The translations under genes were made by a program, and so were the position numbers. From a virus: a stretch of DNA of 64,000 bases. The stretch's first letter is position 1, and every line of letters starts with the position of its first letter. The stretch spans positions 1 through 64,000 of IMG/VR virus record IMGVR_UViG_3300025012_000055; one strand, written 5' to 3'. A model generated the notes under the pieces. That model had not been told where the DNA came from, did no database searches, and was given only the letters and a program-made list of their open reading frames with translations. Of this stretch, positions 30,784 through 56,690 are shown in pieces.

Positions 30784-31020
30784 GTGGGGTATGTTGATAG
30801 ATGGATAGGAGATTGCATTAATCATCCAAATAATGAAACAAAACATCAATGGCAATTAAATTCTTTTGATACATATTATCGGTTAAATGGTGGTGAGTGG
30901 GTTAATGATAGGGAAATTGGAAGAGATATTTATATTAATTTACAACAATTTAGGGAAGAATTTTCAGCTGATGAAATTTGGGATATAACATTAAAAGAAA
31001 CATTAAAAAATGATAAATAA
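30784..31020 (+). CDS. hypothetical protein
   Basis: ORF; start uncertain. Confidence 0.5.
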   Translation: MGYVDRWIGDCINHPNNETKHQWQLNSFDTYYRLNGGEWVNDREIGRDIYINLQQFREEFSADEIWDITLKETLKNDK

Positions 31021-31038
31021 TTTAAACCTTATAAAATT

Positions 31039-31632
31039 ATGGAAAAATCACATGAAATAATATATATTGATGATTATGCAATAATTGTCAGTGATGACGA
31101 TATTGAAATTGGAGATAGGAGATTGGATTTATTTAACATGACAATAGGTTTTTGCATTAATGAAAAAGACAAAACTTTTCTAAATAAACGCCTTAAAGGT
31201 GTTGTTGTATTTAAGAAAATTATTGCATCAACTAAATTAACTTGGATACCTGAAACTCCATTGTTTAGTTTACCTAATGAAATTAATAAATTAATCAGAG
31301 AATATTTTAATGGAAGCAATTCAATCAATTTAGATATTTATGAAAATAAAGATTTTGCTGAATTTATTTACAAAGCAGTACAAAAAAAGTATTCAGAAGA
31401 AGATTTGAGAGATGCCATTATGTATGGTTATCAAACTTGCATGAGAGGAGGAAATATTGATAAAGATAAATATGTTGAATCTCTCAATAAATCTAAAAAA
31501 CCTATAAGTTGTATAGTTGAATATGAAACTATTTGGGCAAGAAATACAGATAGGAATGTACCCACAGAAGCAGATTTTGATTATAAACCAAAAATAGAAA
31601 ATGGTAAACTTGTAATAACGAAATTTAATTGA
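31039..31632 (+). CDS. hypothetical phage protein
   Basis: KKIIAST and KKYSEEDLR motifs. Confidence 0.7.
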   Translation: MEKSHEIIYIDDYAIIVSDDDIEIGDRRLDLFNMTIGFCINEKDKTFLNKRLKGVVVFKKIIASTKLTWIPETPLFSLPNEINKLIREYFNGSNSINLDIYENKDFAEFIYKAVQKKYSEEDLRDAIMYGYQTCMRGGNIDKDKYVESLNKSKKPISCIVEYETIWARNTDRNVPTEADFDYKPKIENGKLVITKFN

Positions 31633-52261: not shown

Positions 52262-52329
52262 ATTGACTTTTTAATTTATTTTATTTATATTTGTAATTTA
52301 GATTATATTTATAAACAAGTTCTTTGAAA
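52262..52329 (+). promoter_or_regulatory. sigma-A promoter plus boxA-like GTTCTTTGAAA
   Basis: ATTG-N20-TATATTTG (52262-52293); boxA-like at 52319-52329. Confidence 0.65.
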
Positions 52330-52484: not shown

Positions 52485-52895
52485 GGGGATGACAGGCATT
52501 GACGTGATCAAAGTAGTCATAAAATATGTGTTTGGCATTCTGGAAAAGACAGAAGAATCGCTTAAATGGCGAATCAAACAAAGGACTCTCAAATGAGATT
52601 GCAAGGTTCTTGGTGTCAGATGAAAATCTGATTTTCAAAAATCAAGAAATTGAATTTGAAATTGCTTAACAAGGTTAAGTCAATTATATTGGAAACAGGA
52701 TAGAGTTAAACTGAATAATCGGGAACAGATTTTAACTGAACATGTTTGTATAATCCAAACAATAAAATAAATCCTGATTAGTTTAGGGTAAAAGTTTGGG
52801 AACGATTCTTTAAAAATTGAACAAAAAATAACACTAAAAAAATATTTTATGTTGAAAGATTAACGGACCCGGTTTTCGAATTACCGGCATCTCCA
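52485..52895 (+). ncRNA. ssrA: tmRNA
   Basis: GGGGATG/CATCTCC-A acceptor with G3-U, GACAGGCATTGAC 5' motif, T-arm-like CCGGT-TTTCGAATT-ACCGG, tag frame 52568-52669. Confidence 0.92.
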
Positions 52896-52964
52896 CTTTT
52901 TAATCCTTAACGATTAGGCTTGTTAGAGGTTTTTATTTAAAATAATTCACTTTTTATTGATAAT

Positions 52965-54462: not shown

Positions 54463-54494
54463 CTTGTTTATTTTAATTATTTTACTTACTTTTG
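54463..54494 (+). promoter_or_regulatory. sigma-A promoter of tRNA operon 1
   Basis: CTTG-N20-TACTTTTG. Confidence 0.8.
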
Positions 54495-54518
54495 TATCTT
54501 GAAAGTATTTATAATAAA

Positions 54519-54590
54519 ATGAAAAACATAAATTTACATAATCTCCCACAGCTACCCAGTAATAAACATTGGGGTGGAAAACTTATGTAA
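54519..54590 (+). CDS. leader peptide 1 (MKNINLHNLPQLPSNKHWGGKLM)
   Basis: Short ORF between promoter and terminator; CTC CCA CAG CTA CCC run. Confidence 0.8.
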   Translation: MKNINLHNLPQLPSNKHWGGKLM

Positions 54591-54617
54591 AAAAATTAAA
54601 AAAATACAATAGATTAT

Positions 54618-54657
54618 AAACCCTGATGTTCAATAAAAAAGTCATCAGGGTTTTTTT
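54618..54657 (+). terminator. attenuator terminator 1
   Basis: AAACCCTGATG/CATCAGGGTTT stem plus T tract. Confidence 0.85.
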
Positions 54658-54675
54658 ATTGATAAAAAATTAAAA

Positions 54676-54749
54676 TATGGTGTTAGTTCAGAGGCAGAAC
54701 GCTACATTTGGGATGTAGAGGTCGAGATATCATAATTCTCACACCATAC
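54676..54749 (+). tRNA. tRNA-Pro(UGG)
   Basis: TATGGTG/CACCATA; CTACA-TTTGGGA-TGTAG; atypical T loop. Confidence 0.8.
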
Positions 54750-54765: not shown

Positions 54766-54839
54766 ATTCCAGTATCCCAATTGGTAGAGGATATAGTATT
54801 AGAAACTATAAAGTGAGAGTTCGAATCTCTCCTGGAGTA
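54766..54839 (+). tRNA. tRNA-Leu(UAG), short variable arm
   Basis: ATAGT-ATTAGAA-ACTAT; GAGAG-TTCGAAT-CTCTC. Confidence 0.85.
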
Positions 54840-54840
54840 C

Positions 54841-54914
54841 TACCGGATCTTCTAATTTTGGCAGGAAAGCACCCTTTGAAGGTGATAATATAGGTTAGAT
54901 CCCTACTCTGGTAA
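54841..54914 (+). tRNA. tRNA-Gln(UUG)
   Basis: TACCGGA/TCTGGTA; CACC-CTTTGAA-GGTG. Confidence 0.8.
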
Positions 54915-55881: not shown

Positions 55882-55913
55882 ATTGATTTTTTAAAATATT
55901 TTACTTATATTTG
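55882..55913 (+). promoter_or_regulatory. sigma-A promoter of tRNA operon 2
   Basis: ATTG-N20-TATATTTG. Confidence 0.8.
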
Positions 55914-55938
55914 TACTTTGAAACTATTTATTAAGAAA

Positions 55939-56019
55939 ATGAAAAACTGGTTAAACATATCAATTCATAGTAATAGTCGTAATATTATACGACCTGGAAG
56001 GGGTATGTTTATACAATAA
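55939..56019 (+). CDS. leader peptide 2 (MKNWLNISIHSNSRNIIRPGRGMFIQ)
   Basis: Short ORF between promoter and terminator; codons match the downstream tRNAs. Confidence 0.82.
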   Translation: MKNWLNISIHSNSRNIIRPGRGMFIQ

Positions 56020-56038
56020 TCATTTTTAAAAGATATAT

Positions 56039-56075
56039 AAAAAACCCCTTGGATTAAGTTTTTAAGGGGTTTTTT
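56039..56075 (+). terminator. attenuator terminator 2
   Basis: AAAAAACCCCTT/AAGGGGTTTTTT. Confidence 0.85.
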
Positions 56076-56080
56076 AATTT

Positions 56081-56154
56081 TGGTCTGTAACTCAGAAGTT
56101 TAGAGTGCCAAGCCGTTAACTTGGAAGCCGGGATGGCAGAATTCCCCAGACCAG
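56081..56154 (+). tRNA. tRNA-Asn(GUU)
   Basis: TGGTCTG/CAGACCA; CCAAG-CCGTTAA-CTTGG; atypical T loop. Confidence 0.8.
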
Positions 56155-56170
56155 CTGGAAATATAAAAAA

Positions 56171-56254
56171 GGAAAAGGACTGGCATGGACGAAGAGATAG
56201 TCTTGAAAACTATTGTGTGTAAAAACATCGTGAGTTCGATTCTCACCTTTTCCG
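56171..56254 (+). tRNA. tRNA-Ser(UGA)
   Basis: GGAAAAG/CTTTTCC-G; ATAGT-CTTGAAA-ACTAT; long variable arm. Confidence 0.85.
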
Positions 56255-56268
56255 CTTTTTTAAAAAAC

Positions 56269-56339
56269 AGGTTCTTGGTGTAATGGCAGCATCTGAAATT
56301 CCAAACTTCAGGGTATGGGTTCGAATCCTATAAAACTTG
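56269..56339 (+). tRNA. tRNA-Trp(CCA)
   Basis: TTCCAAA loop; ATGGG-TTCGAAT-CCTAT; mismatches in stems. Confidence 0.75.
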
Positions 56340-56340
56340 C

Positions 56341-56426
56341 GGAAAATAAACCAATCAGGGTATTGGGCCTATTTGCTAAATAGTGCGTTCTGTAAAAAGA
56401 ATGTGTTTCAAATACTCTGTCCTCCG
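56341..56426 (+). tRNA. tRNA-Ser(GCU), degenerate
   Basis: TTGCTAA loop in CTAT/ATAG stem, long variable arm; weak acceptor and T stems. Confidence 0.6.
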
Positions 56427-56437
56427 CAAAATTATAT

Positions 56438-56510
56438 TGACCAGTAGCTCAATTGGTGGAGCAACATTCTGATGAAATGAAGGTCGAAGGTTCAAATCCT
56501 TCCTGGTCAA
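56438..56510 (+). tRNA. tRNA-Ile(GAU)
   Basis: TGACCAG/CTGGTCA; CATT-CTGATGA-AATG; GAAGG-TTCAAAT-CCTTC. Confidence 0.85.
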
Positions 56511-56519
56511 CAAAAAACT

Positions 56520-56592
56520 ATTTTCTTAGTTTAACTGGATAAAATATTTGGCTACGAACCAAAAGATGAGAGTTCGAATCTTTCAGAAAATA
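56520..56592 (+). tRNA. tRNA-Arg(ACG)
   Basis: ATTTTCT/AGAAAAT; TTTGG-CTACGAA-CCAAA. Confidence 0.88.
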
Positions 56593-56607
56593 CATTATAA
56601 TTAATAT

Positions 56608-56682
56608 GGTGCTATTGTTGTAAATTGGTGAGCATAGAAAACTGTGAATTTTCAGGTAAAGGTTCAATTCCTTTATGGCACC
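56608..56682 (+). tRNA. tRNA-His(GUG) with encoded G-1
   Basis: G-GTGCTAT/ATGGCAC-C; GAAAA-CTGTGAA-TTTTC. Confidence 0.88.
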
Positions 56683-56690
56683 CAATAATC

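Follow-up and report, generated by a model that had tools for sequence, protein, structure and literature searches.

In enterobacteria, leader-peptide attenuation is exemplified by trpL, hisL, leuL, pheL and thrL and by the multivalent ilvGMEDA leader. The pheM leader of E. coli pheST works by attenuation in response to the supply of cognate charged tRNA, and its target is an aminoacyl-tRNA synthetase. Phage tRNA genes are usually seen as constitutive cargo, either correcting a mismatch in codon usage or replacing tRNAs destroyed by defence systems of the host. A survey of the full-text literature on leader-peptide control of tRNA genes found no description, and the literature on leader-peptide attenuation in Bacteroidetes yielded nothing relevant.

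Attenuator 1, the locus described here, probably gates a phage tRNA operon as a ribosome-mediated (leader-peptide) transcription attenuator. It resembles the trpL/hisL/leuL/ilv class in its promoter-proximal ORF, its run of control codons, its 1:2, 2:3 and 3:4 helices and its terminator. The control codons are rare, as are the CUA codons of leuL, and several amino acids are represented in a single leader, as in ilv and thr. In contrast to the enterobacterial attenuators, the targets are tRNA genes rather than biosynthetic enzymes, and the product would act directly on the step that is sensed. The unit is moreover phage-borne, with promoters of Bacteroidota type and without a Shine-Dalgarno sequence; leaders of its relatives list up to 11-12 amino acids, and a strong 1:2 helix is missing from many of them. 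The pheM leader shares with attenuator 1 the leader-peptide attenuation of a gene of the translation apparatus, but it is cellular, responds to a single amino acid and controls a synthetase instead of tRNA genes. T-box elements share the terminator/antiterminator control in response to tRNA status, whereas they bind uncharged tRNA directly and need no translation. What is new relative to classical attenuation is the application to phage tRNA operons, the leaders that read as checklists and the direct feedback by the product.

The window, the whole stretch of DNA that was analysed, is the first 64 kb of the 91,380-bp IMG/VR virus record IMGVR_UViG_3300025012_000055, which has a G+C content of 25.8%. 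With a completeness of 28% by the estimate of CheckV, the record probably represents part of a huge phage. Its closest matches in a collection of isolate and GenBank phages come from uncultured huge phages whose proteins share about 24-28% identity with those of the record, and a blastn search of the attenuator region against isolated phages matched the tRNAs alone. A tmRNA-like gene was observed 1.6 kb upstream of attenuator 1 (52485-52898, + strand), 3' of a phage promoter at 52279-52295. The whole RF00023 model aligns to it with 17.7 bits, short of the gathering score, which is 47 (E = 4.9e-5), and its tRNA-like ends are well conserved, including the G3-U70 pair; ARAGORN makes no call there.

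Promoter, leader and tRNA genes of attenuator 1

The elements from the promoter to the last tRNA gene of cluster 1 are as follows.

54466-54496, + strand: Bacteroidota-type phage promoter (motif at 54480-54496, TAnnTTTG box at 54487-54494)
54519-54590, + strand: leader ORF of 23 codons plus stop, peptide MKNINLHNLPQLPSNKHWGGKLM (ATG at 54519, TAA at 54588-54590)
54543-54557, + strand: control codons CTC CCA CAG CTA CCC (L P Q L P), read from the sequence
54677-54748, + strand: tRNA-Pro (UGG) with an unusual T-loop (RF00005, 49.1 bits; missed by ARAGORN even at low thresholds)
54766-54839, + strand: tRNA with anticodon UAG, reading CUA and CUG (RF00005, 51.2 bits; found by default ARAGORN)
54841-54914, + strand: tRNA-Gln (UUG) (RF00005, 37.5 bits; found by ARAGORN -ps)

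The window holds 17 copies of the promoter motif TTTTACTTAYNTTTGTA, which contains TAnnTTTG, where 1.4 would be expected, and in the whole record this motif stands upstream of ordinary genes as well as of all three leaders. Transcription of attenuator 1 would start at about 54503-54506. The motif is absent from the 20 nt between the terminator and tRNA-Pro, and with no promoter in this interval the tRNAs of cluster 1 can arise only by read-through. The short ORF lies directly 3' of the promoter in a usable start context, A/U-rich and beginning with ATG AAA like other genes of this phage.

Default ARAGORN reports only the Leu gene of cluster 1 and misses four or five tRNAs of this phage. Since lowered thresholds add false positives, its extra calls were accepted inside clusters only. 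The UAG tRNA of cluster 1, 74 nt in length, is of class I, with a short variable loop. In bacteria a long variable arm is the rule for tRNA-Leu, and the amino-acid identity of the UAG tRNA is therefore uncertain. A comparable class I UAG tRNA is present in Cellulophaga phage phi19:1.

An earlier note, made from the letters of the window alone, had pointed to the LPQLP codon run as unusual in this genome and as naming exactly the amino acids of the tRNAs downstream. All strings that it cited were found where it had placed them, and both statements held: Rfam RF00005 confirms the three tRNAs (UGG, UAG and UUG), so the run is cognate to the Pro, Leu and Gln tRNAs downstream. The codons CCA, CAG and CTA can be decoded directly by these anticodons, and CTC and CCC require four-way wobble by U34 of the UAG and UGG anticodons. 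Within this phage CTC, CTA, CCC and CAG are rare, at 1.9-4.8 per 1000, the preferred codons being TTA for Leu and CAA for Gln, and CNN codons make up 10% of all codons in 64 long ORFs. No run of at least five [LPQ] residues exists in the 23,188 residues of the long ORFs. Among 554 short ATG ORFs in six frames, leader 1 is alone in having a run of this kind in which L, P and Q all occur; a C-rich 5' hairpin arm in an AT-rich genome by itself favours CNN codons, and five CNN codons would all specify L, P or Q by chance in about one case in 10. Because of this bias of the hairpin arm, attenuator 1 taken alone is suggestive and not proof, and the decisive weight for the match between leader and tRNAs lies with the family-level tests given below.

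The codons beside LPQLP (54525-54542, N I N L H N; 54558-54572, S N K H W) are mostly served by a second tRNA cluster of the same phage. These codons of cluster-2 type in leader 1 could be left over from a duplication or could reflect cross-talk between clusters 1 and 2.

A terminator/antiterminator switch beside genes related to translation also brings to mind a T-box-type riboswitch, in which the leader codons would be specifiers that bind uncharged tRNA independently of protein synthesis. Between 52000 and 59000, a search of Rfam at E <= 1 gave nothing but tRNAs and spurious weak matches, with no T-box or other cis-regulatory family among them and no T-box architecture. The leader is also far shorter than a T-box, and across the family up to 12 tRNAs are listed per leader, always in the frame of the ATG. 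This reading was considered and rejected as scarcely credible.

Alternative pairings and the position of the ribosome

Four segments of the leader transcript can pair in alternative ways.

54533-54560, + strand: segment 1, 5' arm of the 1:2 hairpin, from the minimum-energy fold
54565-54591, + strand: segment 2, 3' arm of the 1:2 hairpin, with 54565-54575 as the alternative partner of segment 3
54618-54630, + strand: segment 3, 5' arm of the terminator; 54620-54630 is the antiterminator partner of segment 2
54643-54657, + strand: segment 4, 3' arm of the terminator (stem 54643-54653, seven T at 54651-54657)

The region 54505-54665 folds at -34.2 kcal/mol (z = -4.75), a value that none of 200 shuffles equalled. 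In its minimum-energy structure, segments 1 and 2 are joined by three helices (54533-41/54583-91, 54546-49/54574-77 and 54555-60/54568-73). Between leader 1 and the tRNA genes lies an intrinsic terminator, with a stem of 11 bp (54618-28/54643-53) followed by T7, which ends 20 nt before tRNA-Pro. Its hairpin has a free energy of -15.1 kcal/mol and an atypically long loop of 14 nt. With such a loop the terminator may be leaky, and because of it a simple terminator scan limited to loops of 3-8 nt does not list it. When segment 1 is masked, the minimum-energy structure becomes the 2:3 helix 54565-75/54620-30, 11 bp with two G-U pairs. This duplex (-12.1 kcal/mol) ranks first among 20 leaders and is matched by none of 300 shuffles. 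The 1:2, 2:3 and 3:4 pairings are mutually exclusive.

The effect of a ribosome was modelled by masking a footprint from -15 to +12 relative to the A-site codon while folding the nascent transcript as far as the terminator loop. With no ribosome, the minimum-energy structure contains 1:2 (-17.0 kcal/mol), and the terminator arm is sequestered with P = 0.23. With the A site at codons 3-12 (AAC through CUA), the 2:3 helix is predicted at -13.9 kcal/mol and the arm is sequestered with P 0.96-0.98. At CCC (codon 13), 8 bp of 2:3 are left (P 0.70). For a ribosome past codon 14 and up to the stop, the arm is free again (P 0.22-0.46), because segment 2 is covered. In attenuator 1 the predicted switch point coincides with the final codon of LPQLP. 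In the model, stalling at the control codons leaves segment 2 available, and a ribosome that has moved beyond them occludes it. The codons of the stall-competent window also include AAC ATA AAT TTA CAT AAT, which cluster 1 does not serve.

These results bear out most of what the earlier note had proposed for the folding. The 1:2 hairpin with its three helices and the 11-bp alternative with two G-U pairs were both recovered, and placing a ribosome footprint at each codon, a check that the note had suggested, gave the behaviour expected of an attenuator, with the predicted release of segment 2 by a stall on the L, P and Q codons. Its reservation that a ribosome close to 54557 might partly shield segment 2 proved right for codon 13 and wrong for all earlier control codons.

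Analogous units in this phage and in other phages

Attenuator 1 has two sisters in the same record, each with this arrangement of elements and with a leader that fits its own tRNAs. The second unit and its tRNA cluster lie within the window.

55899-56076, + strand: attenuator 2, with promoter, leader MKNWLNISIHSNSRNIIRPGRGMFIQ (ORF 55939-56019) and a strong terminator (56038-56076); fold z = -7.0
56081-56683, + strand: tRNA cluster 2, with Asn (GUU), Ser (UGA), Trp, tentative Ser (GCU), Ile (GAU), Arg (ACG) and His (GUG)

Of codons 3-18 of leader 2, 13 are directly readable by the tRNAs of cluster 2. Attenuators 1 and 2 have their 5' UTR and an MKN start in common, which suggests a duplication. 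The tentative Ser (GCU), at 56341-56427, lies in the 97-nt gap between tRNA-Trp and tRNA-Ile and has a weak type II fold with two acceptor-stem mismatches; it is called by ARAGORN only at the 85% threshold and has no Rfam match. Leader 2 holds AGT twice, which would match this tRNA. Cluster 3, at 88.9-90.8 kb (88963-90796 of the genome), is outside the window and stands 3' of the leader MKQITTYFGGNGDGTTDAITIMARLC and a terminator. It comprises Asp and Phe and then, after an inserted minus-strand ORF, Gly and Ala. The ORF that splits Phe from Gly and Ala is about 1.2 kb long and is possibly a transposase. Five Thr codons and one Tyr codon of leader 3 have no matching tRNA in cluster 3. Folding without a ribosome gives P0 of 0.00-0.28 for the units of all three clusters, which makes them default-off in the classical manner.

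No orthologue of attenuator 1 was found through the flanking 205-aa protein, and the flanking 68-aa protein led only to unrelated phages with no tRNAs nearby. The 5' UTR and start-codon pattern of attenuator 1 had 0 matches. An exact 23-mer of tRNA-Pro led to unrelated phages in which the tRNAs directly follow a protein gene without a leader, a negative contrast to the present arrangement. Because no true orthologue was found, the 2:3 helix of attenuator 1 itself has no base-by-base covariation.

Analogous units were therefore sought more widely. Homologs of the Sir2 gene that adjoins cluster 2 pointed to 28 related loci, carried by huge phages whose records reach 483 kb. Synteny with Sir2 was abandoned as a route to the clusters, tRNAs being near Sir2 in only two of the 28 loci, with one tRNA each. 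The tRNAs of the relatives were then mapped across whole records, and 20 tRNA-rich stretches were taken. These were screened automatically for a terminator at most 45 nt from a tRNA, paired with the longest ATG ORF to stop immediately upstream of the terminator. The screen gave 21 units, two of them identical to each other, and 20 distinct units were tested. Three came from this phage, and 17 further units (16 distinct) are reported for related huge phages.

In the relatives the agreement between leader and tRNAs is visible at a glance: SSSSRSRRSSSRRS precedes Ser/Ser/Arg/Arg/Arg, PQPQDQDP precedes Gln/Asp/Pro, YYYEAE precedes Glu/Tyr and VVAQAVQGQAG precedes Val/Val/Gly/Ala. Longer lists are NMMNLTLNVVNITLCNIR before Arg/Asn/Val/Ile/Cys/Thr/Ile/Leu/Met and NNIHISNRNQWYQPCFINN before Ile/Asn/Tyr/Trp/Phe/Pro/Gln/His/Ser/Ile/Arg/Cys. 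Most of these units have no strong 1:2 helix, and their antiterminator forms without a ribosome (P0 0.6-0.9). For many relatives the predicted default is accordingly read-through, with the switch off only when a ribosome finishes the leader. Orthologous leaders, such as those of the Phe/His/Trp/Lys/Ser/Arg units in two records, differ in sequence and keep their frame and cognate content, which fits selection on the codons and not on the peptide. A functional micropeptide is unlikely for the same reason, composition being kept in orthologous leaders but not sequence. One pair of orthologous units shows an exchange of G-C to A-U between segments 2 and 3. In one related huge phage (G016; L047, 734-806), a tRNA with anticodon CUA, which reads amber and lies within a tRNA region, was labelled Pyl by ARAGORN; it may reflect reassignment or suppression of TAG.

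A cultured analogue, Cellulophaga phage phi19:1 (host Cellulophaga baltica), was reached through a tRNA match. Its leader ORF, MNNNTIHIQRLPQPKRF..., lies 3' of a TAnnTTTG promoter and contains the run HIQRLPQP. It is followed by a U-tailed terminator and by Pro (UGG), Gln (UUG), His, Leu (UAG) and Arg (ACG). Both the leader ORF (GenBank record, 30904-31054; L070, 1980-2130) and the first tRNA, Pro (UGG) (L070, 2133-2207), are unannotated. Masked folding gives the profile seen for attenuator 1: as far as the last Pro of HIQRLPQP, and including it, sequestration of the terminator arm is predicted with P 0.75-0.87, and beyond it the arm is free. Functionally this unit would be the nearest counterpart of attenuator 1, and its system is tractable: it has the same design and also serves Pro (UGG), Gln (UUG) and Leu (UAG). 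Unlike these shared features, the leaders of phi19:1 and of the relatives have no homology to that of attenuator 1 beyond an MK[NT] start, and the tRNA sets differ.

Across the 20 units, the leaders match their own tRNA sets. When leaders and tRNA sets were permuted, the cognate fraction was 0.49 observed against 0.28 permuted (z = 8.5; 0/200,000 permutations), and the same amino-acid test on 15 dereplicated units also gave 0/200,000. At the codon level, under standard wobble rules, the result was z = 8.8 (0/200,000). Leader 1 ranks first of the 20 leaders on the set {L,P,Q}. Pooled over 19 units, cognate residues account for 66% (214/324) of the stall-competent codons against 27% (57/215) of later codons (Fisher p = 1e-19). 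The pairing of each terminator 5' arm with its own leader summed to -234.6 kcal/mol over the 20 units, against -157 +/- 10.7 kcal/mol under permutation (0/100,000). The terminator arms differ between units yet pair best with their own leader, which amounts to covariation among analogous units.

These results bear on a plainer account, in which attenuator 1 is a constitutive leaky terminator or insulator, or an sRNA gene of about 150 nt, the ORF is there by chance and the tRNAs are made by unregulated read-through. Translation of the leader is a deduction, the long terminator loop suggests leakiness, and a C-rich hairpin arm in an AT-rich genome yields CNN codons through composition, all of which would suit that account. 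It leaves unexplained, however, why leader composition tracks the tRNA set in 20 units, why the cognate codons end where a ribosome occludes segment 2, and why orthologous leaders diverge and yet keep their frame and cognate content. We consider it improbable, and a plain sRNA was rejected for attenuator 1.

Leu, Ser and Arg are six-fold degenerate, and in units whose cluster serves only one of the two codon boxes the leaders choose that box 23 times and the other 6 times, a preference that runs against the AT-driven codon bias of the phages. This argues for sensing of isoacceptors rather than of amino acids. It also speaks against a sensor of general translation slowing or amino-acid starvation, in which any stall at codons 3-13 would open the switch. 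Such a sensor would accommodate the non-cognate codons within the stall-competent window, and a missing tRNA and an uncharged one would look alike to it. Extra tRNA would not relieve amino-acid starvation, however, and with the codon-box preference opposing the phage's own bias we regard such a sensor as very unlikely.

Proposed switch and its meaning for phage tRNA genes

At the level of sequence, attenuator 1 has every feature of attenuation that could be tested. On the leader-peptide reading, leader translation, coupling of polymerase and ribosome, read-through driven by a stall and the physiological trigger are what we infer, and the tRNAs for Pro, Leu and Gln would probably be made only when the matching codons are read slowly. 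The phage promoter would start the transcript about 15 nt before the 23-codon ORF. With no ribosome, 1:2 would pair, the 3:4 terminator would form and the transcript would end about 20 nt before tRNA-Pro. With a ribosome at codon 14 or beyond, segment 2 would be covered and the terminator would form likewise. A ribosome lingering at codons 3-12, and partly at 13, would hide segment 1 and leave segment 2 free; the key codons of this stall window would be CUC CCA CAG CUA CCC. The free segment 2 would then capture the 5' arm of the terminator over 11 bp, and RNA polymerase would read on into tRNA-Pro (UGG), tRNA-Leu (UAG) and tRNA-Gln (UUG). Processed and charged by host enzymes, the new tRNAs would speed up the same codons and shut the switch, so that the net effect would be a demand-driven feedback on decoding capacity. 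Under amino-acid starvation, a switch of this kind would fire without benefit to the phage, which counts against gating.

Another, more speculative possibility is that the attenuators act as a counter-defence sensor, turning replacement tRNAs on specifically when anticodon nucleases of the host, or a host shut-off induced by the phage, deplete particular isoacceptors; we hold this to be rather unlikely. If it were true, the codon lists of the leaders would record the host tRNAs that are attacked or limiting, and the tmRNA-like gene could belong to the same ribosome-rescue toolkit.

For the attenuator that gates a tRNA operon, as preferred here, experiments are feasible, since phi19:1 and C. 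baltica are a cultured phage-host pair with the same design. If the reading is true, this would be the first case known to us of tRNA genes under ribosome-mediated attenuation. The phage would measure decoding speed codon by codon and top up only the shortages. Each leader would be a readable list of the monitored codons, and why phages carry particular tRNAs would become directly testable.
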